Of a stretch of 39,096 bases of DNA, positions 398 through 22,852 are shown piece by piece (positions within the stretch are counted from its first letter, which is position 1; the number at the start of each line of letters is the position of its first letter). This DNA comes from a virus (Duplodnaviria; Heunggongvirae; Uroviricota; Caudoviricetes). The DNA lies in the IMG/VR virus record IMGVR_UViG_2851971941_000002; one strand, 5' to 3'. Below the pieces are notes generated by a model that saw only the letters and a list, made by a program, of their open reading frames with translations, did not search any database and was not told the origin of the DNA. The position numbers and the translations under genes were made by a program.

Positions 398-676
398 TCA
401 GCTCCATTCCCGAAGCGGTGTTTCCAGCTCCACGACATAATCAGAGAATACAGAAACATCAAACAAGTCATCAAGAATGCGAATGTTGACAAAATAACCA
501 TCATTCCGGATACAGACAGGTTCTCCCTCTTCTGTTACCCCTGTTTCTGTGTAGGTGAAACCAATTTCATCAACTAACAGTTTATTCTGGAGGTCTTCAT
601 CTTCCGCCCAGCCAAGAGATGACAGGAAGGCCTTAAACTGCAGTTTGTCATGAAACTTCAAAGTTAAATCTTTCAT
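398..676 (-). CDS. hypothetical small acidic protein (92 aa), translationally coupled to stf
   Basis: ORF track; its start overlaps the stf stop by 4 nt (ATGA); about 20 Asp/Glu versus about 8 Lys/Arg; no family recognised. Confidence 0.5.
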   Translation of the reverse strand: MKDLTLKFHDKLQFKAFLSSLGWAEDEDLQNKLLVDEIGFTYTETGVTEEGEPVCIRNDGYFVNIRILDDLFDVSVFSDYVVELETPLREWS

Positions 677-2733: not shown

Positions 2734-2742
2734 ATTCACCCC

Positions 2743-2797: not shown

Positions 2798-3397
2798 TCA
2801 GAACTTATAACCGACACCCACGATGAAACCGTCAGTGCGCCAGTCGCCACTGCCGGAGCCTTCATAAGCAATATCAATGGCCACGGATTCGGTCGGGTTA
2901 AACTGCACGCCAGCTCCCCACGCCAGAGACGTGTTGCTGTGGCGACCGTCATCACTTCCGGTCAGCACGTCGTGCGTTTTCCCCTTGTTGTCAGTTACGC
3001 GGAGATAATCCCCGGAGAAAGTCGACACACGGCTGTAAGCCATACCCGCCATCGCATACGCGCTGAACCATTCATTCACGCGCACAGACGGCCCCACCAT
3101 CACGCTGAACCAGCGGTTACGCACGGAATCTTCATGCCAGCGGGTATCGCTGTAACGGGTAAGCTGGCGATTCTTGTCTCCTGCATAGCTGAATGACGTC
3201 ACCAGCCCCAGTGTGTCCGTAAACTCATAACGGTATTTCACGTTAATCCCGTTAAGATCATCGCTGCCGGGAACGTTCGTCGAGGCATGAAGATACCCCG
3301 CGCTCAGCGTGGACTGATGTTCAGATGCCCATGCAGGCGCACCGGATACGGCCAGACAAATGGCTGCGGACAAAATGGCGGCATAAAGTTTACGCAT
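2798..3397 (-). CDS. lom: Lom-like outer membrane protein (Ail/Lom/PagC family)
   Basis: Signal peptide [40 protein letters not shown] and C-terminal [25 protein letters not shown] match lambda Lom as recalled; position between J and stf as in lambda. Confidence 0.9.
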
Positions 3398-3466: not shown

Positions 3467-6400
3467 TCAACGAATACTGATGCCGGAAGCGGCTTTTTTG
3501 GTCACAATCACCGTACAGTCGGTGATATTACCTGCCCACTGATTGCCTTTATGGAAAACCTTAAACTCCAGAGTGACGCTTCCCCTGCCACTCGGCATAT
3601 CAATAACCGCACTGTAGCTACCGGGAATGGCCCCTTTAGTTTCTCTGGATGCGATTAATACACCGTTTTTGCGAACTTCAAAACCATAACCCGTGTATCT
3701 TGTACCTCCCGGGTTATTACCACTTCCCGGATCGCTATACGCTATTCCGTTAAAGATAATGGGCGGAATAATGATTTGACGGTCAAAGTTATGATCATCG
3801 CTGATGGTGACTGTAACCGTCCCGTTTGGTGTTTCCGTGTTACCCCACGTACCAGCCTGTTTCGGAAATGATTTGGATACAGCTTTAACGAAGTCACCTC
3901 TGACCTGAGTCGCCTCCAGCATGCCCTTAATCGTACAGTTTTCATTTACCGTGACATTGTTGAGCGTCCCGGCGTTCGCATTCACACTGCCACTGATATC
4001 CGCATTTTTAGCGGTCAGCTTTCCGTCTGATGTCAGGGAAAATACCGGAGGACTGCCACCACTGGTAATGGTGGGGGCCGTCAGGCGCTTCAGGAACACG
4101 TCGTTCATGAATATCTGATTGCCCTGCGCCACAAACATCGGCGTTTCATTCCCGTTTGCCGGGTCAATAAATGCGATACGGTTAGCGGCAACCAGAAACT
4201 GACTCAGTTTGCCTTCCTCCGTGTCCTCCATGCTGAGGCCAATACCCGCGACATAATGTTTGCCGTCTTTGGTCTGCTCAATTTTGACGCCCCACATGGC
4301 ATTCCACTTATCGTTGGCGTCCTTCCACTCTTTCGAAAACTCCTCCAGTCTGCTGGCGTTATCCTCCGTCAGCTCGACTTTTTCCAGCAGCTCCTTGCCG
4401 AGATGGGATTCGGTTATCTTGCCTTTGAAAAAATCCAGGTAACCTTCCGCATCATCGCTCGCCCGACCGACGGCCTCCACGAATGCCGATTTGCCAACGG
4501 TGTTCACACTGCGGATATAAAAGTAATAATCATGGCCCGGTTTGATATTGATACTGGCGGCTATCCAGTACAGCGCCGTACCAAGATAGCGGGCTGTGGT
4601 TTCAACCTGCCTGATATCGGTAATCCGCTTTTCCGAGAACCAGAACTCAAACTGTACCGTCGGGTCATAAACGGCAAGATGCGGCGTGGCGGTTATCTGA
4701 AAATAGCCCGGCGTCAGCTCAATCCTCGACGGTGCTGCCGGTGCGGCAATCCGGAACGATACCGACGCCGGATCGCCCTGCTGCCCCCACGCATTTACCG
4801 CCCGGACTGTCAGCCTGTAGTTCCCCAGCGCCAGTTGCCTGAAGCGGTATGTGGTTTCCGTCGTCCGGGCCGTGCTGACCAGCCGCTCACTGCCGTCATC
4901 CGCTGTTACGGTCAGACGGAGCAGGAAGCTCACGCCCTTCACCACCTTCGGCGTGTCCCAGCGCGCCAGCACCTGATATTCCCCGCTGTCTGCGGTGACT
5001 TCGGCGGTCAGGTGCTGCACCGCTGGCGGCGTGACACCATTCACCGTGCCGCTCTGGTCGCCGTCAAAGTACGCCCCGTTATCCACGATGGCCTCTTTTT
5101 CCGGTACATGCTGCACGGCGGTGATGGCATACGTGCCGTCGTCGTTCTCACGGATACTCACGCAGCGGAACAGGCGCTGGCGCAGCGTCGGCAGCTTCAG
5201 CCCCCACACGCTGTATTCAGCAACACCGTCAGGAACACGGCTCACTTTCACCTTCACGCCGTCGGTGACGGACTGAACCTCCACGCTGATCGGATTGCCA
5301 CTTCCGTCAACCAGGCTTATCAGCGTGGTACCGGAGGATGGCAGCGTGATTTCACGGTCGAGCGTCAGCGTCCGGGTCTGGCTGTTTACCGCCAGCACGC
5401 GCCCGCCGATGCTGATACCGGCATAGTCATCATCACAGATTTCAATGACATCGCCCGGCACATGGCGAAGCCCTTCTGCGCCCACGCAGAAGTCCACGGT
5501 CTGCGTTTCCAGCAGTTCTGTTTTAATCAGCCACAGCCCGGCGCGGTGTGCCTGCCCCCGGCTGGTACAGCCAAAAGCATCCATCTTCGTGACGTTACGA
5601 CCGTAACGGGCAATGGCCTGCGTATCCTCCACAAGCTCTGTCGCCGTCTCCCAGCCGTTGTTCGGGTCAATCCAGTTCACCTCAACGGCATTATGGCGGT
5701 CTTTCAGGGCGCTGAAACTGTAGCGGAACGGCGCGCCATCATCCGGCATCACCACATTACTGCGGTTATAGGTCCACACCTTATCCGACGGTCGGTCCTG
5801 CACGAACGTCAGCGTCTGCCCGTTCCATACCGGCATACAGCGCATCGCCGAGCAGAAATCACTGAGCACATCCCACGCCTTGCGCTGTGTGGTCAGGTAC
5901 GCATTACAGGTGATGCGCGGCTCCGTGCCGCCAAAGCCGTCCGGCACTGACTGGTCGCAGTACTGGCCGATGACATACAGCGCCCATTTGTCCACATCCG
6001 CCGCACCAAGACGTTTCCCCATGCCGTAGCGTGGATGGGTCAGCATATCCCACAGACACCAGGCCATGTTATTGCTGTATGCTGGCTTAAACGTTCCGTC
6101 CCAGATACCGCTGTATTGCCGCGTCTGCGGGTTATAGTTCGACGGCACCTGCAGAATACGCCCGCGCAGATGATAATTACGGCTCACCTGCTGGCTGCCG
6201 AACTGCTCCGAATCCACCTGTACGCCGACCAGTGCCGTGTTCGGGTAGCACTGTTTCACATCGATGATTTCGGTGTATGACGACCAGAGCGTTTTGTTCT
6301 GCAGCTGGTCTGTGGTGCTGTCCGGCGTCATCCTGCGCATCCGGATATTGAACGGGCGCGGCGGCAGGTTACCCACCACCACCGAGGCCAGATACTGTGA

Positions 6401-6880
6401 GGTGGTTTTGCCTTTAATGGTGATGTCTTTTTCCGTCACCCAGCCACCGTTACGCTGTATCTGAACCAGCAGGCGGACTTCCGACGGATTCCGGTCCCCC
6501 TTTGAGGTGGTTTCCACCAGTGCCTGCACACCGAAGGTAAAGCGCAGACGGTCGATGTTTGCAGACGTGATGGTCCGGGTAATCGGCGTGTCGTACTTCA
6601 CTTCCGTACCCAGCACCGTCTCGGAGCCGGAGGATTCAAATCCCTCCGGCGGTGTCTGCTCCTGCTCACCTGCCCGGAAAACCACCGTGACACCGGAGAT
6701 ATTGGTATTCCCCTCACTGTCCAGCACTGGCGTACTGTTCAGCAGCACACTTTTTAATCCGTCCACCGGACCTTCAATCGGCCCTTCACTGATGGCGTCT
6801 ATCACGCTCAGCATCTGGGATGATTTCAGGTTGTCCTTCGCTTCGCGCGGGGTATGCCCCTTACTGCTGCCTTTACCCAT
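3467..6880 (-). CDS. J: tail tip / host specificity protein J
   Basis: 1137 aa; N-terminus [41 protein letters not shown] matches lambda J as recalled; lambda gene order. Confidence 0.95.
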
Positions 6881-6940
6881 TCCTCACGCTCCAGAAACGA
6901 CAAAACCGCCCTGAGGCGGTTTCACATAAAACGTTTTTCA

Positions 6941-7612
6941 TCAACGACCAATCACCACAACCTGACCACCGTCCCCCTCGTCTGCCGTGCTGATCTCCTG
7001 AGAAGCCACCCGCGACCCCACGCGCATTTCACCGTACAGAACAGGCAGAACATTGCCCTGGGCAACCATGTTATCCAGTGAGGAGAAATAGGTGTTCTGC
7101 TTACCGTTATCCGTTGTCTGTGTACGGGGAGTTCTAGCTTTCGGTGCCAGCATCTGCGCCACACCACCAAGTACCATACTGGCACCGAGAGAAAACAGGA
7201 TACCGGTCATACCACCGGCCCCAATGGCTGCCCCCCATGCTGCAAGGGTGGCTCCGGCAGTAAAGAATGATCCGGCAATGGCGGTAGCCCCCAGAACAAT
7301 CTGGAATACGCCCCCTGACTTGGCCCCGGCGACTCTGGGAACAATATGAATCACAGCGCCGTCAGGCAGAACCTCATGTAACTGCGCCGTCAATCCGGAC
7401 GTGCTGACGTCCCGCCCGGCAATCCGTACCTGATACCAGCCGTCGCTCAGTTTCTGACGAAACGCCGGGAGCTGTGTGGCCAGCGCCCGGATGGCTTCAG
7501 CCCCCGTTTTCACACGAAGGTCGATGCGGCGGCCAAATCGTTGTAAATCCCCGTAAAGGCAGATGCGCGCCATGCCCGGTGACGCCAGAGGGAGTGTGTG
7601 CGTCGCTGCCAT
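6941..7612 (-). CDS. I: tail tip assembly protein I
   Basis: 223 aa; MAATHTLPLASPGMARICLYGDLQRFGRRIDLRVKTGAEAIRALATQLPAFRQK matches lambda I as recalled; overlaps the 3' end of K as in lambda. Confidence 0.95.
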   Translation of the reverse strand: MAATHTLPLASPGMARICLYGDLQRFGRRIDLRVKTGAEAIRALATQLPAFRQKLSDGWYQVRIAGRDVSTSGLTAQLHEVLPDGAVIHIVPRVAGAKSGGVFQIVLGATAIAGSFFTAGATLAAWGAAIGAGGMTGILFSLGASMVLGGVAQMLAPKARTPRTQTTDNGKQNTYFSSLDNMVAQGNVLPVLYGEMRVGSRVASQEISTADEGDGGQVVVIGR

Positions 7613-8253
7613 TTGTCGGTATACCTCTCTCGTTTGCTCAGTTGTTCAGGAATATGGTGCAGCAGCTCGCCATCACCACAGTAAATGGCGGCATGATTCG
7701 GCACCGATGAACCAAAACAGCACAGCAGCACATCGCCCGGTTGTGCTGATGACAACGGCACCTGATACAGCCCTGTGGCCTCCAGATTATCCAGATAGAG
7801 ATTCTGACCGTGACGCCACCAGTCATCCCCGCGATGAAAATCCGGCATCTCAATCCCCGCCAGATGATAAGCATCCCGGAACAGCGTGTAACAGTCCGTC
7901 ACCCCGTGCTCAAAGCGCCGCCCGGTAAGATGCGGCACACAGCGGAATTTATGAATCTCACCCCGGCAGACCAGCCACCACGGCAAATCGCTCTGCACCT
8001 GCAGCCGCCTGTCAGCCTCACTCAGCCAGGGCAGACCACCGGGGTGGCTGTGGACCAGCGCCACAATCTCACCCTGCATTTCTGCCCGCAGCCAGTCCTC
8101 CGGCGACATCCGGAAATACGCCTCCGGCTCACCGGAGATATTCACGCAGGGAAAATATCTTTCCCCCTTCGGCGTTCTCACCACGAAGCCACACGACTCC
8201 GCTGGCGCACATCGCCGGGCGTGCGCCAGAATCGCTGATTCTGTCTGTGTCAT
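7510..8253 (-). CDS. K: tail tip assembly protein K (JAB/MPN plus NlpC/P60-like)
   Basis: MTQTESAILAHARRCAPAESCGFVV...HSHPGG matches lambda K as recalled; ATG at 8253 sits 4 nt after the L stop; the ORF-track start at 8295 overlaps L and is probably an artefact. Confidence 0.9.
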   Translation of the reverse strand: MTQTESAILAHARRCAPAESCGFVVRTPKGERYFPCVNISGEPEAYFRMSPEDWLRAEMQGEIVALVHSHPGGLPWLSEADRRLQVQSDLPWWLVCRGEIHKFRCVPHLTGRRFEHGVTDCYTLFRDAYHLAGIEMPDFHRGDDWWRHGQNLYLDNLEATGLYQVPLSSAQPGDVLLCCFGSSVPNHAAIYCGDGELLHHIPEQLSKRERYTDKWQRRTHSLWRHRAWRASAFTGIYNDLAAASTFV

Positions 8254-8257
8254 GGGA

Positions 8258-8956
8258 TTACTGCGAAAGTTTGTTAATGGAAAGGAAGCCGCCAAAGTTG
8301 CCGACGTTATTGCGGAACTTACAACCGCTCAGGCATTTGCTGCATTTATCCTTCGTGATATCGGACGTTGGCTGGTCATATTCATCCGCGACAGCCGGAC
8401 CGCTATAACCGCACTCGTCACCGCGATAGGTCCAGGTGCAGGTGTTGGCCAGCATGATACGTCCCGGAAAAACAGCGCCATCCGTTTCCGTCGGCGTGGA
8501 CAGTACAAAGGAGGCACTCACCGCGCTCAGTTCGCTGCACTGCTCAATGCGCCAGCGGCTGATCACCTCCTGCTCCGGATCGGCATAACTGTTTCCGTTG
8601 ACGAAGTTCACCGCATCCAGAAAACGGGCGTAAACCTTACGCCGGACCACCGTTCCGCCGACCAGACTCTGCAGATCTTCCGCCATCCCGGTGACCATAC
8701 CGTACAGGTTAGAAACCGTCAGCGTGGGGCGCGTACTGGTGCCTTTGCCATTCAGTTCAAAACCGCTCCCCTGAATGGGATACGGCTGATACTGTCGCCC
8801 CTGCCAGGTGACCGGCTCACCTTTTTCGTTCTGCTCATTACAGAAAAAATAACGTTCTCCACCGACCTCTGTCAGGTCGATTTCCCAGAGCACCACGCTG
8901 GCCGACTGCTCCGCACGGGTGCATTCATTCAGTGTTTCCTGCCGGATATCCTGCAT
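8258..8956 (-). CDS. L: tail tip protein L
   Basis: 232 aa; MQDIRQETLNECTRAEQSASVVLWEIDLTEVGGERYFFCNEQNEKGEPVTWQGRQYQPYPIQGSGFELNGKG matches lambda L as recalled. Confidence 0.95.
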   Translation of the reverse strand: MQDIRQETLNECTRAEQSASVVLWEIDLTEVGGERYFFCNEQNEKGEPVTWQGRQYQPYPIQGSGFELNGKGTSTRPTLTVSNLYGMVTGMAEDLQSLVGGTVVRRKVYARFLDAVNFVNGNSYADPEQEVISRWRIEQCSELSAVSASFVLSTPTETDGAVFPGRIMLANTCTWTYRGDECGYSGPAVADEYDQPTSDITKDKCSKCLSGCKFRNNVGNFGGFLSINKLSQ

Positions 8957-9285
8957 CAGTTCACCACCTGTTCAAACTCTGCGCTGAACTCAACACGCAG
9001 CATACTGACCCGCGACGACCATTTTGCGCAGGTCACCTTTATCTGCCGCCACTCATAAGGCGGCGTCCACAGAAAGGATTTCCAGCCCCCGTGCTCTTCC
9101 AGAAACGACTCCAGTACCGTGGCCTCCTCACGGGGGACAGAAAGCGTCACGCTGTACGTTTTCAGGTTGGCATTCAGCCCGGCAGGCGCTCGCTGAGAAT
9201 AGCCATCACCAAAGCGCACCTTTCTTACAGAAGGGACCGAAGCCACATCCATACCGGGTTTCACTTTCCAGCGGAAGGTCTTCAT
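8956..9285 (-). CDS. M: tail tip protein M
   Basis: 109 aa; MKTFRWKVKPGMDVASVPSVRKVRFGDGYSQRAPAGLNANLKTYSVTLSVP matches lambda M as recalled. Confidence 0.95.
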   Translation of the reverse strand: MKTFRWKVKPGMDVASVPSVRKVRFGDGYSQRAPAGLNANLKTYSVTLSVPREEATVLESFLEEHGGWKSFLWTPPYEWRQIKVTCAKWSSRVSMLRVEFSAEFEQVVN

Positions 9286-11843
9286 CGTCCACCTCCGGAG
9301 AACAGGCCACCATCACGCATCTGTGTCTGAATTTCATCACGGGCACCCTTGCGGGCCATGTCATACACCGCCTTCAGAGCAGCCGGACCTATCTGCCCGT
9401 TCGTGCCGTCGTTGTTAATCACCACATGGTTATTCTGCTCAAACGTCCCGGACGCCTGCGACCGGCTGTCTGCCATGCTGCCCGGTGTACCGACATAACC
9501 GCCGGTGGCATAGCCGCGCATCAGCCGGTAAAGATTCCCCACGCCAATCCGGCTGGTTGCCTCCTTCGTGAAGACAAACTCACCACGGTGAACAATCCCC
9601 GCTGGCTCATATTTGCCGCCGGTTCCCGTAAATCCTCCGGTTGCAAAATGGAATTTCGCCGCAGCGGCCTGAATGGCTGTACCGCCTGACGCGGATGCGC
9701 CGCCACCAACAGCCCCGCCAATGGCGCTGCCGATACTCCCGACAATCCCCACCATTGCCTGCTTAAGCAGAATTTCTGTCATCATGGACAGCACGGAACG
9801 GGTGAAGCTGCGCCAGTTCTGCTCACTGCCGGTCAGCATCGCCGCCATATTCTGTGCAATACCATCAAAGGTCTGCGTGGCTGCACTTTTTACCTGCGAC
9901 ATACTGTCCGTGGCGCTCTCTTCCCACTCACTCCAGCCGGACTTCAGGCCTGCCATCCAGTTCCCGCGAAGCTGGTCTTCAGCCGCCCAGGTCTTTTTCT
10001 GCTCTGACATGACGTTATTCAGCGCCAGCGGATTATCGCCATACTGTTCCTTCAGGCGCTGTTCCGTGGCTTCCCGTTCTGCCTGCCGGTCAGTCAGCCC
10101 CCGGCTTTTCGCATCAATGGCGGCCCGTTTTGCCCGTTGCTGCTGTGCGAATTTATCCGCCTGCTGCGCCAGCGCGTTCAGGCGCTCCTGATACGTAACC
10201 TTGTCGCCAAGTGCAGCCAGCTGGCGTTTGTACTCCAGCGTCTCATCTTTATGCGCCAGCAGGGATTTCTCCTGTGCAGACAGCTGGCGACGTTGCGCCG
10301 CCTCCTCCAGTACCGCGAACTGACTCTCCGCCTTCCACAAATCCCGGCGCTGCTGGCTGATTTTCTCATTTGCTCCGGCATGCTTCTCCAGCGTCCGGAG
10401 TTCAGCCTGAAGCGTCAGCAGGGCAGCATGAGCACTGTCTTCCTGACGATCGCCCGCAGACACCTTCACGCCGGACTGCTTCGGCTTTTTCAGTGTCGTT
10501 TCATAGTCCTTTTTCGCTGCCGCCATCAGCGTGTTGTAATCTGCCTGCAGGATTTTTCCGTCTTTCAGGGCCTTATTCAGTTCTTCCTGACGGGCGGCAT
10601 ATTTCTCCAGCGGCGTCTGCAGCCGTTCGTAAGCCTTCTGCGCCTCTTCGGTATATTTCAGCCGTGACGCTTCGGTATCGCTCTGCTGCTGCGCATTTTT
10701 GTCCTGTTGACTCTGCTGTTCAGCCTTCTTTCGGGCGGCTTCAAGCGCAAGACGGGCCTTTTCACGATCATCCCAGTAACGCGCCCGCGCTTCATCGTTA
10801 ACAAAATAATCATCCTTGCGCAGATTCCAGATGTCGTCTGCTTTCTTAAACGCAGCCTCTGCCTTAATCAGCATCTCCTGCGCGGTATCAGGACGACCAA
10901 TATCCAGCACCGCATCCCACATGGATTTGAATGCCCGCGCAGTCCTGTCTGCCCAGGTCTCCAGCGTGCCCATGTTCTCTTTCAGGCGGCGGGTCTGGTC
11001 ATCAAACCCTTTCGTTGCGGCCTCGTTCGCCGCCTGCAATGCCCCGGCTTCATCGCCGGAACGCTGCAACTGAGCAACATACGCAATCTGCTCCGCCGTC
11101 ACGTTATGGAACTGGCGTGCCATCGCCGTCAGCCCCGACGTCGGGTCTGTGGTCAGCTTCCCGAAGGCTTCAGCGACCTTGTCCACCTCCACGCCGGATG
11201 CAGAGGAGAAACGCGCCACACTCTGGCTGATGGACGCAATCTGAGCCTCACCGCTTACCCCCGCCTTAACCAGTGCGCTGAGTGACTCGCTGGTCTGGTT
11301 AAACGTCAGCCCAGCCGCCTGCCCGGCTCTGGACAGGACCAGCATACGATCTGCCGTCAGACCCGCCTGATTGCCGGAAAGGACCAGCGTTTTGTTGAAA
11401 TCGGACAGGGTTGAGTTGCCCTGATACCAGGCATACGCCAGCGCACCGGTCGCCACCGCCAGCGAGGTGGCCCCCACCATCGGCAGGGTGATCGCACCGG
11501 CAAGCCCCCTGAACATGGGGATCATCCCGCCGAAGGAGTCCTTCACCTGCCCCCCCTGTTGCAGCAGGATCAGCCACGGACTTTGCCCGCCTGCAAGCTG
11601 CGTGGCCACGTCGGTGAACTGTGCAGGCAGCATACGCATGGCGGCTTTATACTGCCCGACGGAAATCCCCGCTTTCTGTGCAGCCAGCGCCTGTCGGCTC
11701 AGCGACTGTTCAACGACTGCCGCTGTTTTTTTCGCATCACTTTCCGTACCGGAAAAATGACGCCTGACTCTGGCCATCTGCTCGTCAAATCTGGCCGCAT
11801 CCAGACTCAAATCAACGACCAGATCGCCTACCGGTTCAGCCAT
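9282..11843 (-). CDS. H: tail tape measure protein H
   Basis: 853 aa, same length as lambda H; N-terminus MAEPVGDLVVDLSLDAARFDEQMARVRRHFSGTESDAKKTAAVVEQSL; coiled-coil-rich middle; position after G/T. Confidence 0.95.
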   Translation of the reverse strand: MAEPVGDLVVDLSLDAARFDEQMARVRRHFSGTESDAKKTAAVVEQSLSRQALAAQKAGISVGQYKAAMRMLPAQFTDVATQLAGGQSPWLILLQQGGQVKDSFGGMIPMFRGLAGAITLPMVGATSLAVATGALAYAWYQGNSTLSDFNKTLVLSGNQAGLTADRMLVLSRAGQAAGLTFNQTSESLSALVKAGVSGEAQIASISQSVARFSSASGVEVDKVAEAFGKLTTDPTSGLTAMARQFHNVTAEQIAYVAQLQRSGDEAGALQAANEAATKGFDDQTRRLKENMGTLETWADRTARAFKSMWDAVLDIGRPDTAQEMLIKAEAAFKKADDIWNLRKDDYFVNDEARARYWDDREKARLALEAARKKAEQQSQQDKNAQQQSDTEASRLKYTEEAQKAYERLQTPLEKYAARQEELNKALKDGKILQADYNTLMAAAKKDYETTLKKPKQSGVKVSAGDRQEDSAHAALLTLQAELRTLEKHAGANEKISQQRRDLWKAESQFAVLEEAAQRRQLSAQEKSLLAHKDETLEYKRQLAALGDKVTYQERLNALAQQADKFAQQQRAKRAAIDAKSRGLTDRQAEREATEQRLKEQYGDNPLALNNVMSEQKKTWAAEDQLRGNWMAGLKSGWSEWEESATDSMSQVKSAATQTFDGIAQNMAAMLTGSEQNWRSFTRSVLSMMTEILLKQAMVGIVGSIGSAIGGAVGGGASASGGTAIQAAAAKFHFATGGFTGTGGKYEPAGIVHRGEFVFTKEATSRIGVGNLYRLMRGYATGGYVGTPGSMADSRSQASGTFEQNNHVVINNDGTNGQIGPAALKAVYDMARKGARDEIQTQMRDGGLFSGGGR

Positions 11844-12270
11844 ACCGGACTCCTCCTGCGATCCCTTCTGATACTGTCATCAGCATTACGTCATCCTCCG
11901 TCATGTCCGCCACATCCGGGGAAGCGGGGATAACTTCATTCCCGTCCGGGCCAAAGCGGACACCTCCGGCAAGCCCTGCCGCTTTCTGCATCAGCACATC
12001 ATCTTCAGGCTCTTCGTCAGCCTCGCGCCGGTTCAGCAGACTGAAATCCAGCGGATGCATATCCGGATCGCTGAAAAACAGGCTGAGCACGGTGTACGTC
12101 AGCCCGGAAAAGTGCATATCCAGCAGAACATCATGAAAATAATGGGTACTGTAAAAGCGGTGCCAGTCGGCATACTCCGTGGATGACATCCCGGCAAGCA
12201 TGGCACGCCAGTCGGGTCGCCCCATCTCACGCGCCAGTTTCAGGGCAAAACTCAGCTCACCGTCGAACAC
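11836..12270 (-). CDS. T: tail assembly chaperone T frame (made only as a G-T fusion by -1 frameshifting)
   Basis: 144-aa frame MFDGELSFALKLAREMGRPDWRAMLAGMSSTEYADWHRFY matches the lambda T frame as recalled; overlaps the 3' end of G at the slippery site. Confidence 0.85.
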   Translation of the reverse strand: MFDGELSFALKLAREMGRPDWRAMLAGMSSTEYADWHRFYSTHYFHDVLLDMHFSGLTYTVLSLFFSDPDMHPLDFSLLNRREADEEPEDDVLMQKAAGLAGGVRFGPDGNEVIPASPDVADMTEDDVMLMTVSEGIAGGVRYG

Positions 12271-12674
12271 TTTCCCGCAGAAACAGGCTCTGCAGGCCCG
12301 GCGTCCTCTGCCTGTTCGGGGGCATTATTCACCACAAACTCATACATACCGGACAGCCGGTACACCACGTTTTCAGCATGAGAAATTGCCTCTGTGGGCC
12401 AGGTGGTAAGCACTTCCTGCTCAATCTGTTTAACGGCTTCATTCATGGACGGCATCTGCGTCTTCTTCGGATGGTTATGCCACAGGGACATCGCCACCAG
12501 AAACGCGCCGGTTCTGATGACGTCTTCCACAGTAACCTGCCGGTTGCTGTCGGATCCCGCCGGTTCTGCCTGCCGTTTCATCAGGGCAAGATGCTCAATA
12601 CGCTGCAGGGCTGACAGTTCAGAAAGCGTGACGGTCACGCCGTTATATTCAAATGATTCGGTTTTCAGGAACAT
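12252..12674 (-). CDS. G: tail assembly chaperone G
   Basis: 140 aa; MFLKTESFEYNGVTVTLSELSALQRIEHLALMKRQAEPAGSDSNRQVTVEDVIRTGAFLVAMSLWHNHP matches lambda G as recalled. Confidence 0.95.
   Translation of the reverse strand: MFLKTESFEYNGVTVTLSELSALQRIEHLALMKRQAEPAGSDSNRQVTVEDVIRTGAFLVAMSLWHNHPKKTQMPSMNEAVKQIEQEVLTTWPTEAISHAENVVYRLSGMYEFVVNNAPEQAEDAGPAEPVSAGKCSTVS
12270..12276 (-). promoter_or_regulatory. -1 programmed ribosomal frameshift slippery heptamer GGGAAAG (G to G-T)
   Basis: Plus strand reads CTTTCCC, i.e. GGGAAAG on the coding strand at the G/T overlap, the same slippery sequence used by lambda G-T. Confidence 0.75.
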
Positions 12675-12689
12675 CGCTGACTCTCCGGA

Positions 12690-13430
12690 TTAACTGGCGG
12701 TGACGGTGATTTCTGCAACCGCAGCAAACTCACCATTACCGGATACAACCGGAATGTTGACCTTGCCTGCAGCAACGCCGTTCACGGTGATGGTCATACC
12801 GCTGACCGACACGGTGGCTTTTGTTTTATCCGCAGACACCGCACGGAAGCTCTTGTCGGTTGCGCCCTCCGGCTGGAATGCCACGGTCAGCGTAGTGCTC
12901 TGCCCTTTCACTACGGAAGCACTGGCGGGTGTCACCGTCATGCCGGTTGTCGCCGTCACCGTGCTGCGATCTTCTGCCATCGACGGACGTCCCACGTTGG
13001 TGACTTTCACCGTGCGGGTGATCACTTCCTTCGCCGTCACCGCCTTACCGATACTGCTGACCCAGCCGCGGAACACATCGACCGTGCCGTTCGGGAAGCG
13101 GATTTTATAGGCACGGGTATCCCCTTCATTAAACCACGCCAGCAGCGCCTGCTGCCCCTGCTCTCCGGGCATCCACGCCAGCGTGAAGCTGGTATCTCCG
13201 GCAGATTTCTGCCCCTGCCCGGTCGCAGTCCAGTCCGCATCTTCATCATCGAGATAGCTGTCGTCATAGGACTCAGCGCTCAGTTCGCCGGGCGTCAGGT
13301 CTTTAACTTTAGCCAGACGCGACCAGTCAACGTCTGAAAGCGGGTTCGCATAAGGGTCACCGTTCCCCTTATAAACCCACAGGGTGGTCCCGGCCCCTTT
13401 CACCGGCATTACTGGATTTGGTACAGGCAT
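12690..13430 (-). CDS. V: major tail tube protein V (with C-terminal Ig-like domain)
   Basis: [57 protein letters not shown] matches lambda V as recalled; ATG at 13430 preferred over the upstream ORF-track start at 13460. Confidence 0.95.
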
Positions 13431-13437
13431 ATCGTCC

Positions 13438-13833
13438 TCACATTTCATAGGTAATGACATAAGTCAGATCGGCTGAACTCCACAGGCCCGCATCATCGTC
13501 GCGCCGGTAGTCATAGCCACTGGCCACCATACTGGTGATCAAATCTGACAGTGCCGGGACATCGCTCATCACCGGATAAATCCGGGACTCCATCCACGAA
13601 TCCAGCTCTGAATCCGGCACCTGAGCAGGCAGGAAAACTTCAATATGCAGCTCCGCCTGCCAGGTATCGCTGTCCAGCTCTTCGCCCGTGTATTCAGCGC
13701 CGGTGAGATAAACGGCAACTGCCGGAAAATCCTCCTCATCAAAAACAGCGGGGCGACCATCAAAAAGCGTCGCCCCGGTGTCATGTTTTTCCAGTGCATC
13801 CAGTACGGCTGCACGGAGTTCTGTATGTTTCAT
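13438..13833 (-). CDS. U: tail terminator protein U
   Basis: 131 aa; [52 protein letters not shown] matches lambda U as recalled. Confidence 0.95.
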
Positions 13834-14408
13834 CGCTTTATTACCATCCTCAGTTGATGCTGCAGCGCATAGCCCAGCTCTTTCGGAAGACGTTCACGCC
13901 GTATCCGCTCAATATTCTGTTTAAACGCCGTGGTCAGCGGCACTGCCATCGGGATTTTCACCACATCAATGGGGTAACGGTTTTTCCCGGCCACACGCTG
14001 CATGACATGCCACCGGCCATTTTTCAGTTGCTGAATAAACGCGCCGGGAATACGACGGTTTCCCACCACAAGCACGCTGTCGCCACCTTTCAGGGATGAA
14101 CGCTGCCCCTTTTTACGACGCCTGCGTCGGGACAGGACAACCCGCGCGTTACCCAGCCTGATTACGGGCAAATCCCCCCGGTTAACCTTGATTCTGGCCT
14201 GCGGATTTTTGACCGTGGCCCTTTTCAGCCTGGCCCTTTCCTTTACCAGTTTCCGGCGTACCTTTGTCTCACGGGCAACCTGTGACGCCGACTGCGATAT
14301 CGCGGATGAAGCAACGCGGTTAATGGCCATTGCGGCGGCACCGGGCACCGCCGTTCTGCTGATACGGCTGAGGTTTTCAACGGCCTGCTCAAGACCTTTT
14401 ATGGCCAT
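13830..14408 (-). CDS. Z: tail completion protein Z
   Basis: 192 aa; MAIKGLEQAVENLSRISRTAVPGAAAMAINRVASSAISQSASQVARETKVRRK matches lambda Z as recalled. Confidence 0.95.
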   Translation of the reverse strand: MAIKGLEQAVENLSRISRTAVPGAAAMAINRVASSAISQSASQVARETKVRRKLVKERARLKRATVKNPQARIKVNRGDLPVIRLGNARVVLSRRRRRKKGQRSSLKGGDSVLVVGNRRIPGAFIQQLKNGRWHVMQRVAGKNRYPIDVVKIPMAVPLTTAFKQNIERIRRERLPKELGYALQHQLRMVIKR

Positions 14409-14419
14409 ACATCCCCCTT

Positions 14420-14773
14420 TCAGCGGCGACGGTTAACGGCAGGCGGTACGCCCCGCCCAAGCCAGAGATGACAGCTTCCGCCATCATCCGGCGAAATCCG
14501 GTCTATCCAGAAGTTTTCCTCACCGATGGTCAGCGTGTCGCCGCGCCGCAGCTGCCGCACATCATCAGTCCGGACAAACAGGGACGGGCTGGAGCCTTCA
14601 ACGCGCACGCCCTGTCCGGCATAGCTGATATTTTCAGGGTCATCAAAAACACCACGTATCACAGCACCGGACTGCTCACCGGATGTCATGGTGGCTGACG
14701 TTCCCATGTACCCGCGTATCGTTTCATCGGCGCGGGCAATGGCAGCATCGAACAGGTTATCGAAATCAGCCAC
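14420..14773 (-). CDS. FII: head-tail connector protein FII
   Basis: 117 aa; MADFDNLFDAAIARADETIRGYMGTSATMTSGEQSGAVIRGVFDDPENISYAGQGVRVEGSSPSLFVRTDD matches lambda FII as recalled. Confidence 0.95.
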   Translation of the reverse strand: MADFDNLFDAAIARADETIRGYMGTSATMTSGEQSGAVIRGVFDDPENISYAGQGVRVEGSSPSLFVRTDDVRQLRRGDTLTIGEENFWIDRISPDDGGSCHLWLGRGVPPAVNRRR

Positions 14774-14784
14774 AGCGCCTCCCG

Positions 14785-15180
14785 TTATTGCATTCTGGCC
14801 AGGCCGCGCTCTGTCATTTCAGCTGCCACACCGGCAGAGACACGGAACGCCGTTCCCGGCAGCACAAATGCCACAGGTTCATCCCGCGTGGCGTGAAGTG
14901 CATCAGTATGCAGCGTCACCAGTGCCACAACCGTGACCAGATCAGCCGTATCAGTCACGGTATCCGGCTGCGCTGATACCACCTCATTTTCATGTCCGGT
15001 CAGCGCATTTTCCGGGCTGACAGATGTGTCCTGACCGGCAGCGTCATCCGTGTCATCAAGCTCCTCTTCCAGCTCTGCCACACGGAGCGCCAGTTCTTCT
15101 TTCGTCCCCGTCAGGCTGACATCACGGTTCAGTTGTTCACCCAGCGAGCGGAGACGGGCAATCAGTTCATCTTTCGTCAT
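14785..15180 (-). CDS. FI: DNA packaging protein FI
   Basis: MTKDELIARLRSLGEQLNRDVSLTGTKEELALRVAELEEELDD matches lambda FI as recalled; ATG at 15180 gives 131 aa; the ORF-track start at 15249 is a likely artefactual extension. Confidence 0.9.
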   Translation of the reverse strand: MTKDELIARLRSLGEQLNRDVSLTGTKEELALRVAELEEELDDTDDAAGQDTSVSPENALTGHENEVVSAQPDTVTDTADLVTVVALVTLHTDALHATRDEPVAFVLPGTAFRVSAGVAAEMTERGLARMQ

Positions 15181-15220
15181 GGACTCCTCCACCGAGAGAA
15201 ATGGCCCCGAAGGGCCATGA

Positions 15221-16246
15221 TTACGCCAGTTGTACGGACACGAACTCATCAGGATCAGCCAGCAGCATCAGCGGTGCTGACTGAATCATGGTGAACTCAC
15301 GCGCCGGATCGCCGGTGGTCACCCAGTTTTTCGGGTAACGGGCAGAGGCGTTAATGCCTTCGCGCTGTGCGTCCGCATCCTGAATGCAGCCATAGGTGCG
15401 CAGACCGCGAGCCTGAGTGTTCCCCAGCACCATCGTGTTGTCCGGCAGGAAGTTCTTTTTGACGCCGTTTTCCACGTACTGTCCGGAATACACGACGATG
15501 GCCACATCGCCATACATTCCCTTATAGGACACCGCTTTGCCCAAGTCTTTTACCGCTGTCTCCAGCTCGGAATGAGAGCCGCGACGGGTATCCAGCTTCT
15601 CCTTGACGGCTTTGAAGGAACGGAACAGCGCCCAGCCTTTCGGATCAAACACGATGATATTCACCACACCGCTGGCGTTCAGCGCGTAGGCTTCGATATC
15701 GTCGGTCGGGTCATACGTGGACTTGTCACGCTTGCTCCACTCCGTGCCGCCGGACTGCGTGATGTTATTCGCCTCACTGCGGCCCATATCCACCTCAACC
15801 GGATCGAAGGCTTCACCGGTCATGGTATATTTGCCCTTAAGCACGGCAGAAACTGCCTGCATCTCTTCGACCTGGGCAATCGCCAGATTTTCATCCAGCA
15901 TATTCTGCCGAATAATACGGCGACGACGGTAAGCCGGGTCAGCCAGGTTCTGCGGATCTTCATCCGGCAGGCGACGCAGGGTCATCTGCGGATTCACCTC
16001 ATGCTTGGGTTTGACATAACCCGGCGTAAATTCAGAGGTGGAGCCGCCACGGGATCGGATAACCTCACCGGAAACAATCGGCGAAACGTACAGCGCCATG
16101 TTTACCAGTCCCGGAATTTGTGAGAGATAGACTTTTTCCGTGGTGAAAGGATAGGTTTCACGGAAAAACAGGCGCAGAAACAGCGGATCGAACTTAAAGT
16201 GATGCTGGGTCGATGCCAGTAATTCTGCGGTTGTATATACAGACAT
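15221..16246 (-). CDS. E: major capsid protein E
   Basis: 341 aa, same length as lambda E; MSVYTTAELLASTQHHFKFDPLFLRLFFRETYPFTTEKVYLSQIPGLVNMALYVSPIVSGEVIRSRGGSTSEF matches lambda E as recalled. Confidence 0.97.
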   Translation of the reverse strand: MSVYTTAELLASTQHHFKFDPLFLRLFFRETYPFTTEKVYLSQIPGLVNMALYVSPIVSGEVIRSRGGSTSEFTPGYVKPKHEVNPQMTLRRLPDEDPQNLADPAYRRRRIIRQNMLDENLAIAQVEEMQAVSAVLKGKYTMTGEAFDPVEVDMGRSEANNITQSGGTEWSKRDKSTYDPTDDIEAYALNASGVVNIIVFDPKGWALFRSFKAVKEKLDTRRGSHSELETAVKDLGKAVSYKGMYGDVAIVVYSGQYVENGVKKNFLPDNTMVLGNTQARGLRTYGCIQDADAQREGINASARYPKNWVTTGDPAREFTMIQSAPLMLLADPDEFVSVQLA

Positions 16247-16259
16247 AAATTATTTCCAT

Positions 16260-16282
16260 AAAAAAAGCCGCACAGGCGGCCT
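16260..16282 (-). terminator. hairpin plus U-tract between D and E (terminator or RNA stability element)
   Basis: On the minus strand, GCCGCCTGTGCGGC stem-loop followed by TTTTTTTATGG, in the D-E intergenic space. Confidence 0.4.
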
Positions 16283-16301
16283 TTGTTGATGAAGGGGAAG
16301 A

Positions 16302-16634
16302 TTAAACGATGCTGATTGCCGTTCCGGCAAACGCGGTCCGTTTTTTAGTCTCGTCGCTGGCAGCCTCCGGCCAGAGCACATCCTCATAACGGAACGAGCC
16401 GGACTTGTAGAACGTCAGTGTGGTGCTGGTCTGGTCAGCAGCAACCGCCAGAATGCCAACGGCTGCACCGTCGGTGGTGCCATCCCACACAACCAGCTTA
16501 CGGGTAGTGCCATCCAGCATCAGCGGGGTCATTGCAGGCGTTTTCGCACTCAATCCGCCAGGCGCAATTGCTGTATGAGCCGGATCACTGTTACCCAGCG
16601 GCTGGTAATGGTTAAACTCTTCTTTTGTCGCCAT
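16302..16634 (-). CDS. D: capsid decoration protein D
   Basis: 110 aa; [32 protein letters not shown]...[40 protein letters not shown] matches lambda D as recalled. Confidence 0.95.
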
Positions 16635-16643
16635 AACTGCCTC

Positions 16644-17955
16644 TTATACCGGTAAAGCTTCAGGTGTATTAAGTAATTCTTTATTGGTATCAGATGCCAG
16701 GTTACCTGCAGCCAGCGGTGCCGGTGCACCCTGCATCAGACGATCCAGCGCAGTGTCACTGCGCGCCTGTGCACTCTGTGGTGCTGCAGCCAGAATGCGG
16801 CGGGCCGTTTCCACGGTCATTCCGGGGGTTTCTGCCAGAACGCGCGCCTGTTCTTCGCGTCCGTGAGCCTCCTCACAGTTGAGGATCCCCATAATGCGGC
16901 TGTTTTCTGCCGCAACCGCTGCGGTGATCTGCGCGTTCACGTCCGGCTGCGCCGCGCTGGCGTTTTCGCCCTCCGTCGCTGGCACCACGTCAGTAACGTC
17001 AGCCTGCGAAGCAGTGGCTGAAACAGTTGTTGATTGAGTCTCTTTGGTCATTCGCCCTCCTGAGAGACGGGATTTACGTGCATCCAGTGCCTCACGCATG
17101 ACGGTGATCGCATCGGTGCTGTTAACAAGTTCATCAGCCAGTCCGGCATCAATGGCCTCCTGACCGCTGTACACTGCTGCCTCGGTATCCAGCACAGCCT
17201 GCACGGACAGGCCGGTATATGCCGACACCTTCTGCGCAAACATCCGGCGGGTTGCATCCATCCGGGACTGCAGTGTTTCCCGGACATCATCCGGTAGATG
17301 GCTGTAGGGGTTGCCATCCACCTTATGGCTGCCGCTGTAAATCAGCGTGATTTCCACGCCCTGTTTCTCCAGCGCAGTGCCGTAATTACTGTGAGCCATC
17401 ATGACGCCGATGGAGCCTGTCCGGGCGGTCTGCGTGACCAGACGTCGGGAGGCGGCGCTGGCAAGCAGTTGACCTGCACTGCAGTTCATGTCGTTGGCCA
17501 GCGCCCATACCGGCTTTATGTCACGCACACGGGCGATGATGTCAGCGCAGTCAAATGCTCCCGCCACCATTCCGCCTGGCGTGTCCATATCGAGCAGAAT
17601 GCCGTCCACCATCGGGTCGCTGGCAGCCTGTTGCAGACGGGCGATAATGCCGTTGTAACCGGTCATCCCCGAGTACGGCTGCAGCGCCCGCGTCCGGCTG
17701 ACCAGCGTGCCGGACACCGGCAGCACGGCGATGCCGTTCATGACCTGATAACTGCGGGCCTGTCGTGGTCCGTCATCATCACCGGATAATGCCAGCGTCG
17801 CAAGTGCCTCCTGGGCAGTCAGGCTGTCGCCGGACACCGCATCCGTCAGGCGGCTGATCCCAAGCTGGCCTGCAAGCGCACAAAAGAAAACCCGCGCATA
17901 GGCGGGTTCAAGCATCAGCGGCTCATTAAAGGCCATGCTGGCAATATGCGGGAGA

Positions 17956-17975
<20 letters not shown>
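16644..17975 (-). CDS. C: capsid assembly protease C (scaffold Nu3 expected nested in-frame in the 3' part)
   Basis: After a GTG at 17975 the frame reads VTAELRNLPHIASMAFNEPLMLEPAYARVFFCALAGQLGISRLTD, matching the lambda C N-terminus as recalled; the 20-nt overlap with the B 3' end is as in lambda; the ORF-track start at 18089 is an upstream extension. Confidence 0.9.
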
Positions 17976-21656
<3,681 letters not shown>

Positions 21657-21682
<26 letters not shown>

Positions 21683-22202
21683 TCAGCAACCCCGGTATCA
21701 GTTCATCCAGCGCGGCTGCTTTGTTCATGGCTTTGATGATATCCCGTTTCAGGAAATCAACATGTCGGTTTTCCAGTTCCGGAAAACGCCGCTGCACCGA
21801 CAGGGGGATCCCGTCGAGAATACTGGCAATTTCACCTGCGATCCGCGACAGCACGAAAGTACAGAATGCGGTTTCCACCACTTCAGCGGAGTCTCTGGCA
21901 TTTTTCAGCTCCTGTGCGTCGGCCTGCGCACGCGTAAGTCGATGGCGTTCGTACTCAATAGTCCCTGGCTGGAGATCTGTCTCGCTGGCCTGTCGCAGTT
22001 CTTCAACCTCCCGGCGCAGCTTTTCGTTCTCAATTTCAGCATCCCTTTCGGCATACCATTTTATGACGTCGGCAGAGTCATAAAGCACCTCATTACCCTT
22101 CCCACCGCCTCGCAGAACGGGCATTCCCTGCTCCTGCCAGTTCTGAATAGTACGGATACTCGCGCCGAAAATGTCAGCCAGCTGCTTTTTGTTGACTTCC
22201 AT
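21657..22202 (-). CDS. nu1: terminase small subunit Nu1
   Basis: 181 aa; MEVNKKQLADIFGASIRTIQNWQEQGMPVLRGGGKGNEVLYDSADVIKWYAERDAEIENEKLRREVEELRQ matches lambda Nu1 as recalled. Confidence 0.95.
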
Positions 22203-22420
22203 TGCTCATTCCACGGACAAAAACAGAGAAAGGAAACGACAGAGGCCAAAAAGCCCGTTTTCAGCACCTGTCGTTTCCTTTCTTTTCAGGGAGTGTTTTA
22301 AATAAAAACATTAAGTTACGGCGAAGAAGAACGGAAACGCCTTAAACCGGAAAATTTTCATAAATAGCGAAAACCCGCGAGGTCGCCGCCCCGTAACCTG
22401 TTGGATCGACGGAAAGGACC
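22203..22420. promoter_or_regulatory. cos: cos site: cosN 12-nt cohesive-end sequence at 22380-22391 plus cosB (Nu1-binding R repeats) and the cosQ side
   Basis: Plus strand AGGTCGCCGCCC at 22380-22391 is the reverse complement of the lambda cohesive end GGGCGGCGACCT; flanks (CGCGGGTTTTCGCTATTTATGAAAATTTTCCGG on one side, CGTAACCTGTTGGATCG on the other) match the lambda end joint as recalled; GGAAACGACAG at 22232-22242 and its inverted copy CTGTCGTTTCC at 22269-22279 plus ACGGAAACGCC at 22331-22341 resemble the R3/R2/R1 sites. Confidence 0.85.
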
Positions 22421-22539
22421 CGAAAACGAGAATAATTATCACTTACAGCAAGAATCGAATCTGATCTATTATGGTGCTTGCTATTATGTGCCGGCACAAG
22501 TGCGTCGTTTACCGTCATTTCACACAGAGGCATCATCAA

Positions 22540-22791
22540 ATGAAAATCAGAAATATTCTCGCTATCTCCCTTGCGACATCATCCTTCAGTTGCCTGGCAT
22601 TTAAATCCTCGCCCAATGTGCTACCAGGACCAACGAATCAACTAACTGCGGTAGAAAGTAAAATTATCGGACATTTTTATGCCCCACACAGTACATTACC
22701 CGGAACAACCATCACAGGGACATGTGACGCCTCCCCCGTCCCGGGATGCACCTGTCCGTTTTGTACTATGCTGCGTAGCCAAAACCGATAA
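22540..22791 (+). CDS. hypothetical small secreted Cys-containing protein (83 aa)
   Basis: ATG at 22540 preceded by GAGG; predicted signal peptide MKIRNILAISLATSSFSCLA; four Cys in the mature C-terminus (TCDASPVPGCTCPFC); no family recognised. Confidence 0.4.
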   Translation: MKIRNILAISLATSSFSCLAFKSSPNVLPGPTNQLTAVESKIIGHFYAPHSTLPGTTITGTCDASPVPGCTCPFCTMLRSQNR

Positions 22792-22852
22792 CATCCGCAT
22801 TTACCTGGTATTCCATGATGAGTTCACGCAGCGACTGATAGAGGAAGGAAAG

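Follow-up and report, generated by a model that had tools for sequence, protein, structure and literature searches.

What can a cos site still do in a prophage that appears to have lost its early functions? The question is raised by a 39,096-nucleotide stretch of DNA from a member of the Caudoviricetes (IMG/VR record IMGVR_UViG_2851971941_000002), hereafter the window, for which a sequence-only reading had described intact packaging and virion genes beside lost immunity, replication and integration functions. Comparison with active phages and with complete Escherichia coli genomes leads us to a reading that we hold with a probability of roughly 0.88, in which the site is the cos of a Perceval-type icd prophage carrying sitABCD, defective in its early functions, with a late half that is intact by virtue of recency and could be captured by recombination.

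Three phages provide the main points of reference. Perceval (OV696612; genus Bievrevirus) is an active, plaque-forming prophage of the AIEC strain LF82 (Misson et al. 2023, PMC9928086), and has in common with the prophage described here the icd locus, sitABCD, bor/iss, the TonB fragment and the alpha/beta hydrolase. Unlike the prophage described here, Perceval keeps cI, a cII-like gene, O, exo, bet, gam and xis together with an integrase of its own, and its Q, holin and endolysin region and its nmpC porin differ from those in the window. PhiR47_2 (PV340567) was obtained by induction of an ECOR strain and grown on E. coli C. Over the hydrolase-to-cos segment (29420..22381) it matches the window at 99.74% identity, with most nin proteins identical, and it shares the window's O/P type, but its immunity and early region is complete, its O has 339 aa and its integrase is of the Perceval type. 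In lambda the morphogenetic genes are syntenic and of equal length, whereas Q and the holin are of different types, and divergence is seen in the C-terminal part of J, in lom and in stf.

The cos site and its parts

Aligned to the joined ends of lambda (NC_001416), the cos region occupies the interval 22203-22421 on the minus strand. The sequence-only reading had placed it at 22203-22420, which located the site correctly and missed the outermost base of cosQ. Base 1 of lambda corresponds to position 22391 of the window, and there is no difference over lambda bp 1-70, a stretch that takes in the right half of cosN together with I2 and R3. The subsites of cos and their roles have been defined by Feiss and colleagues (PMC4669245, PMC4856287), including the extent and essentiality of I2 (PMC4856287), and the cohesive end, I2, R3, R2, R1 and cosQ all agree with lambda letter for letter (Table 1), bearing out the earlier claim that cosN and the Nu1-binding repeats are intact. 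The site of about 22 bp that constitutes cosN is completed by flanks extending to about 22370-22401, of which the right is that of lambda and the left carries one substitution (G to A at lambda -10) common to both active phages, Perceval and PhiR47_2. The spacing between cosN and R3 is that of lambda, as is the distance from cosQ to the nick, and the cosQ heptamer is matched exactly in Perceval, PhiR47_2 and the prophage of strain A32 as well. Departures from lambda are found between the binding sites: the substitutions in the R3-R2 interval fall at lambda 71, 73, 97, 100 and 102, four of them also present in Perceval and PhiR47_2, and the gap between R2 and R1 has a 1-bp deletion (lambda 137) that both of these phages share.

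Table 1. Positions of the features described in the text. A double dot in a range marks coordinates given along the feature or as outer limits.
Feature	Position	Strand	Remarks
Two small ORFs	92-385, 398-676	-	100% identical to Perceval
Side tail fibre	673-2739	-	688 aa; 100% identical to Perceval tail fibre protein
lom	2798-3397	-	100% identical to Perceval
Tail genes Z, U, V, G, T, H, M, L, K, I, J	3467..14408	-	Full-length lambda matches
Head genes W, B, C/Nu3, D, E, FI, FII	14420..19760	-	Full-length, single-frame lambda matches, 89-100% aa identity
Terminase A	19757-21682	-	641 aa, full length, 99.4% identity to lambda
Terminase Nu1	21657-22202	-	181 aa, full length, 98.3% identity to lambda
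Nu1 ATG	22202	-	12 bp past downstream flank of R1
R1, Nu1 binding site	22242..22227	-	CTGTCGTTTCCTTTCT; exact match to lambda 151-166
R2, inverted Nu1 binding site	22283..22268	-	AGAAAGGAAACGACAG; exact match to lambda 109-124
R3-R2 interval, location of IHF site I1	22324..22284	-	Length as in lambda; 5 substitutions
R3, Nu1 (TerS) binding site	22340..22325	-	GCGTTTCCGTTCTTCT; exact match to lambda 52-67
I2, bent-DNA spacer	22374..22342	-	Lambda bp 18-50; identical
Cohesive end (12 nt), cosN core	22391..22380	-	GGGCGGCGACCT; identical to lambda bp 1-12
cosQ heptamer, packaging-termination subsite	22421..22415	-	GGGTCCT; lambda 48473-48479, exact
TonB C-terminal fragment	23155-23481	-	Pfam, PGAP
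iss/bor	23962-24255	+	92.8% identity to lambda Bor
Rz/Rz1	24287-24748	-	Rz 100% identical to PhiR47_2, full length against lambda
Endolysin R	24745-25221	-	158 aa, intact, full length against lambda
Holin	25208-25525	-	100% identical to PhiR47_2; Pfam holin family
Promoter-like site and terminator-like hairpins	25637-25851	-	Consensus matches only
Q	25835-26524	-	229 aa; 99.6% identical to PhiR47_2; Pfam Phage_antiter_Q
Alpha/beta hydrolase	28373-29416	+	Pfam, PGAP
Inverse autotransporter	29453-33361	-	1302 aa; IAT_beta and Big_1/Invasin_D3 repeats
Replication gene P	33611..34312	-	Intact, 233 aa; 96.5% to lambda P, 97.4% to PhiR47_2 P
O remnant	34309..35232	-	5'-truncated, frameshifted, reads in two frames
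ori iterons	34770-34886	-	Five palindromic copies (TTACCTGATTCGGGTAA type), inside O remnant
IS3-family element interrupted by ISEc21	35233..37790	-	Outer end near 37790 approximate
ISEc21 transposase (IS110 family)	35566-36642	-	Intact; NCBIfam and PGAP
e14-type xis	37801-37989	+	Open
intE pseudogene	37970-39096	+	Two frames

When the cos regions of lambda, the window, Perceval, PhiR47_2 and the A32 prophage are aligned five ways, the window and the A32 prophage show no differences, while four of 270 positions (lambda 77, 100, 146 and 188) distinguish the window from Perceval and PhiR47_2, none of them in cosQ, cosN, I2 or the R elements. One of the four, a C-to-T change at lambda 100 within the R3-R2 interval, is shared in that alignment with the A32 prophage only and is absent from the isolated phages. 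The deposited Perceval genome itself begins at the base equivalent to window 22391, and its last bases, ...CAGGTTACG, are those directly before that site. A match by chance is ruled out, since the 401-nt cos region is 94-98% identical to 88 phage records. Judged by these identities, the site should be cleavable by its own terminase or by any other of lambda specificity. The winged-helix domain of Nu1 would bind R3, R2 and R1 and IHF would bend I1, with the I2 spacer setting the distance at which the large subunit, gpA, nicks cosN 12 nt apart; cosQ and cosN would then halt packaging at the next cos.

Sites of this kind are widespread. Of 5426 complete E. coli genomes, 3982 contain a lambda-type cos that covers at least 80% of the interval, the total being 8738 places, and many genomes hold several, up to eight each; the 20-kb structural arm, at the same minimum coverage, is present in 2927 complete E. 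coli genomes. The site is an ordinary, textbook lambda-type cos of a kind already well known. Just past cosQ, on the plus strand, lies an unannotated ORF (22541-22791) of about 83 aa with a signal-peptide-like N-terminus (MKIRNILAISLATSSFSCLA...), a Cys-rich C-terminus and no Pfam match, near which PGAP instead places a 60-aa hypothetical protein on the opposite strand.

Terminase, virion and lysis genes

The claim that all head, tail and terminase genes are intact is upheld by alignment to both lambda and Perceval, which revealed no hidden frameshifts in the structural genes. When each lambda protein from Nu1 to J is searched by tblastn, a single match results that spans its full length in one frame, at 89-100% amino acid identity, with gaps confined to the divergent C-terminal part of J and a single one in FI, and the open frames of the ORF table match or exceed the lengths of the lambda proteins. 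The slippery site GGGAAAG of G/T is conserved. Against Perceval, the 22,391 bp from window 22391 to 1 are colinear end to end at 98.96% identity, and the sole indel in this left arm, at window 15200, falls in the intergenic E-FI spacer. All 24 proteins from Nu1 to the tail fibre, the full-length Nu1 and A among them, have the same length as their Perceval counterparts and are free of stops. Twelve of the 24 are identical (W, D, E, M, L, K, I, J, Lom, the fibre and the two small ORFs), the last four corresponding to PERCE_21 to PERCE_24, and identity across the head genes ranges from 93 to 100%.

The side tail fibre carries a Pfam phage_tail_N domain and a weak C-terminal match to ConA-like lectins, and is labelled by PGAP as a pseudogene truncated at its C-terminus. 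This label is probably an over-call or annotation artefact, because the 688-aa ORF is 100% identical to the fibre of the plaque-forming Perceval.

Damage of a subtler kind was sought by polarizing all differences from the intact A32 sibling, for which Perceval and lambda served as outgroups. Only six derived substitutions have arisen in the defective lineage over the 15.5 kb between I and Nu1, four synonymous and two replacements, both of the latter in the terminase: A45D in Nu1 (window 22069) and T466I in gpA (window 20286). Over residues 1-98, A45D is one of two differences between this Nu1 and the solved lambda TerS (6hn7, 1j9i). Residue 45 lies within the DNA-binding domain, and the D45 allele is rare, occurring in none of the 80 phage records that hold this segment and in 13 IMG/VR predicted prophage contigs as against at least 120 with the wild-type allele; it was on these grounds suspected of being a lesion. 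The suspicion was dropped, as column 45 is naturally variable (A, D, K, E, G, V or M among homologues from other enterobacteria), which argues that a charged residue is tolerated there. The I466 allele of gpA is present in 21 of 91 related loci. The polarized comparison with A32 thus yielded no evidence for a concealed missense lesion in the arm from I to Nu1, though missense differences from active phages, such as those in FI, which is only 93% identical to its Perceval counterpart, may not all be neutral, and sequence cannot prove them so.

Late control and lysis have been retained alongside the virion genes. R and Rz are 94-97% identical to lambda, and the spacer between Q and S contains a promoter-like site followed by strong terminator-like hairpins, a layout of consensus matches such as would be expected for a Q-controlled late promoter. 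The description of the prophage as "regulation-dead" consequently holds for early and immunity control, for O and for Int, but not for late control, since Q and the late promoter region are kept. In the PhiR47_2 record, R (17274-17749) has one C fewer than the window (at 24962) and is annotated as two CDS, a split that is possibly a sequencing error.

Losses in the early region and at the integrase

The extent of the losses is best seen against a sibling prophage at the same icd locus of strain A32, which is apparently complete and encodes a 339-aa O, a YdaT-type cII analogue, cro, an S24-family cI, kil, gam, bet, exo, xis and int. From window position 4000 to 35232 the two are 99.475% identical, and the sole indel is a deletion in O. 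At 35232 the homology breaks off, and with it O codons 1-30 and everything upstream have gone. The loss of immunity that had been claimed is confirmed by tblastn, which found in the window none of cI, cro, cII, N, exo and bet of either lambda or the A32 sibling, and, among the A32 early proteins, only a related integrase and a weak match to xis; the place of the early region is taken by IS3::ISEc21. NCBIfam recognizes fragments of the IS3 transposase at profile positions 1-85, 147-267 and 283-368. A search for the inverted repeats at the IS3 termini returned nothing usable, so that the limits of the element rest on the homology break at 35232 and on the transposase fragments. The IS3 remnant also has a 1-nt deletion at 37768 relative to strain Z1323MEC0001.

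Two genes for replication and integration carry lesions of their own. The O gene lost its start at the IS3 junction (35232/35233) and additionally suffered a 1-nt deletion at 34557, where AAAA in A32 and PhiR47_2 has become AAA, in agreement with the claim that the replication function O is lost. On the far side of the insertion, the xis-int region (37801..39096) is 89% identical at the nucleotide level to xisE-intE of the K-12 element e14, and the two halves of the intE product are 96-97% identical to K-12 IntE and lie in different frames; a 1-nt deletion in a C-run at 38484 brings a stop after about residue 179, and integration function has accordingly been lost, as proposed. PGAP marks both O and intE as "frameshifted" in two other genomes, B1172 and Z1323MEC0001. 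What the prophage has kept besides its late genes is P, the ori iterons, Q, the late promoter region and an open xis. An AT-rich repeat beside the iterons survives as well (34742-34886 for the two together), and with these repeats and an intact P the origin might still fire if an O of matching specificity were provided in trans.

It might be argued that the prophage is autonomous after all, its frameshifts being homopolymer sequencing errors and its missing functions being supplied by another promoter and initiator. Both 1-nt deletions (34557 and 38484) do fall in short homopolymer runs, and P, the iterons, xis, Q and all late genes are intact, but the same frameshifts are annotated in the independent assemblies of B1172 and Z1323MEC0001, and the sequencing-error explanation was rejected on account of this recurrence. 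Moreover, cI, cro, the cII-like gene, gam, bet, exo and O codons 1-30 were lost by a 2.5-kb IS substitution, not by a base-calling error, and that substitution is common to about seven complete genomes, so that autonomy appears extremely improbable. With no repressor, no early promoters or regulators that would drive Q, no O and no integrase, the prophage would not induce, replicate or excise alone.

The xis-int pair is only 55-65% identical in amino acids to the pair of Perceval or of the A32 sibling, and the attL end looks like that of a different icd-integrating element, fused to a Perceval-like prophage at the IS3. Under this scheme the IS3, later hit by ISEc21, would have replaced everything from the start of O to the e14-type xis-int. 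Going by the end points alone, the history may have been one of IS-mediated deletion, possibly fusing two icd-integrated elements. Between int and icd, outside the window (45284-47658 of locus L003), are an HNH endonuclease and an AAA ATPase resembling ea31 and ea59 of lambda.

The gene for the inverse autotransporter, which contains a tandem 357-bp repeat at 31341-32054, lies between P and ninB, where both Perceval and PhiR47_2 have ren, an SMR/EmrE transporter and ybcK instead; this exchange suggests that the P-ninB position is a hotspot for swapping cargo. According to PGAP, the prophage also contains homologues of nohD, rzpD, rusA, ybcN and ybcO. In the whole window an Rfam scan found no family at threshold, and ARAGORN found no tRNA or tmRNA.

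Extent, age and likely fate of the late half

In Z1323MEC0001 the 3' end of icd and an icd' fragment on the far side of sitABCD share an imperfect repeat of 254 bp (91.7%), delimiting an island of about 47.7 kb from attL to attR that includes sitABCD, as in Perceval. The window represents an internal 39 kb of this island, from just past sitD to the intE stop codon, and is near-identical to chromosomal segments of several E. coli genomes. The colinear arm, the icd locus and the morons are those of a Perceval-like prophage; a complete, lytic-capable genome is not present, and three independent lesions (the early-region replacement, O and intE) common to several genomes that differ in host and country mark the prophage as defective. 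Other non-autonomous lambdoid remnants, which donate genes to infecting phages, likewise keep late, lysis or cos segments; they include the K-12 prophages DLP12/qsr', Rac and Qin as well as the defective Sp prophages of O157 Sakai. The three K-12 examples retain few virion genes or none, while the remnant described here retains the full Nu1-J-stf set, is far younger, and lies at icd with an e14-type int remnant. Identity as a phage-inducible chromosomal island or other satellite was rejected on the strength of the island's size and full virion gene set: cos-type PICIs, as defined after PMC9026076 and PMC6739421, are elements of about 10-15 kb that encode an int, a regulator and replication functions of their own and carry a helper-type cos, but lack virion genes.

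The value of a chromosomal cos could alternatively lie mainly in helper-driven packaging in situ, in which a terminase of lambda specificity would cut at this site and packaging would proceed leftwards on the window via Nu1-J-stf into sitDCBA and the adjacent chromosome and make this a transducing island. Both cosN and cosB are undamaged and face the right way, towards Nu1, J and sitABCD, the distance from attL to attR fits the capacity of a lambda head, and the co-occurrence of several lambda-type cos sites in many E. coli genomes is favourable to such a process; its termination, however, depends on another cosQ-cosN in the same orientation roughly one genome length further downstream (PMC4669245, PMC4856287), and a second downstream cos was not located. 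Without Int and O the element can neither excise nor form concatemers, and we consider this role very unlikely. A single chromosomal cos, as Sternberg and Weisberg reportedly observed in 1975, gives rise to unterminated, non-infectious particles of the "doc" type. A helper-dependent mobile unit is also conceivable, because attL/attR, xis, the iterons, P, Q and cos have been kept in an element of head-filling size; given helper O, an e14-type Int and a matching Q, the island could be excised, replicated, packaged in its own capsids and transferred. We rate this as decidedly improbable. If true, it would represent "satellite by decay", a full-size unit moving sitABCD, iss and the inverse autotransporter.

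We return to the reading of an early-defective prophage that is intact in its late half by recency. The IS3::ISEc21 configuration is found in about seven complete genomes, and between the window and members of this defective lineage there are 10 substitutions and one indel over 39 kb (about 0.03%). It is conceivable that the late module was kept by selection, whether for regulated lysis or biofilm formation, as proposed for DLP12, for gene-transfer particles or for the supply of satellites. None of the 24 late-arm ORFs is interrupted, nor is the lysis cassette, even though the early functions are gone, the derived changes in the structural arm are four synonymous to two replacement, and the cargo of sitABCD, iss and the inverse autotransporter is of benefit to the host. 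Yet six substitutions are too few to tell purifying selection from drift, the cargo alone would keep the island with no need of virion genes, and one member of the lineage (muskdeer13-4) already has an extra IS insertion in its right half. In a lineage this young, neutral evolution by itself would leave 19 kb almost free of disruptive mutations, so that a block of this size should still be open and no selective explanation is needed; maintenance by selection therefore seems very unlikely, and the intactness of the late genes is best explained by recent decay.

In its present state the late half (Q, the late promoter region, lysis genes, cos, Nu1-J and stf) would constitute a silent block, which coinfecting or coresident lambdoid phages could capture by homologous recombination and which a matching Q in trans could also switch on. 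Precedents are available: the hybrids Galper1 and Galper2 combine all structural and lysis genes of Perceval with the replication module of Gally (PMC9928086), and defective prophages have been described as recombination donors by De Paepe et al. (2014, PMC3945230) and Asadulghani et al. (2009, PMC2669165). By analogy, it is reasonable to suppose, as the sequence-only reading did, that this non-autonomous remnant may donate modules to lambdoid phages by recombination. That defective lambdoid prophages act as gene reservoirs is established knowledge and not new. The value of the present analysis lies in annotation, in that the icd island with its sitABCD, iss and inverse autotransporter genes can be recorded for this lineage as a non-autonomous prophage, whose late arm would still be fully recombination-competent with circulating Perceval and lambda-family phages; beyond annotation, a textbook cos in a decayed sibling of the characterized Perceval matters little.

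The differences from the A32 sibling are themselves unevenly distributed. Between 4000 and 6000 and between 31000 and 35232 they are strongly clustered: 72 fall in central J, while the autotransporter repeats account for 38 and O-P for 27, as against only about 13 in the 16 kb between those clusters. This indicates patchwise recombination with other lambdoid prophages and not clock-like divergence.
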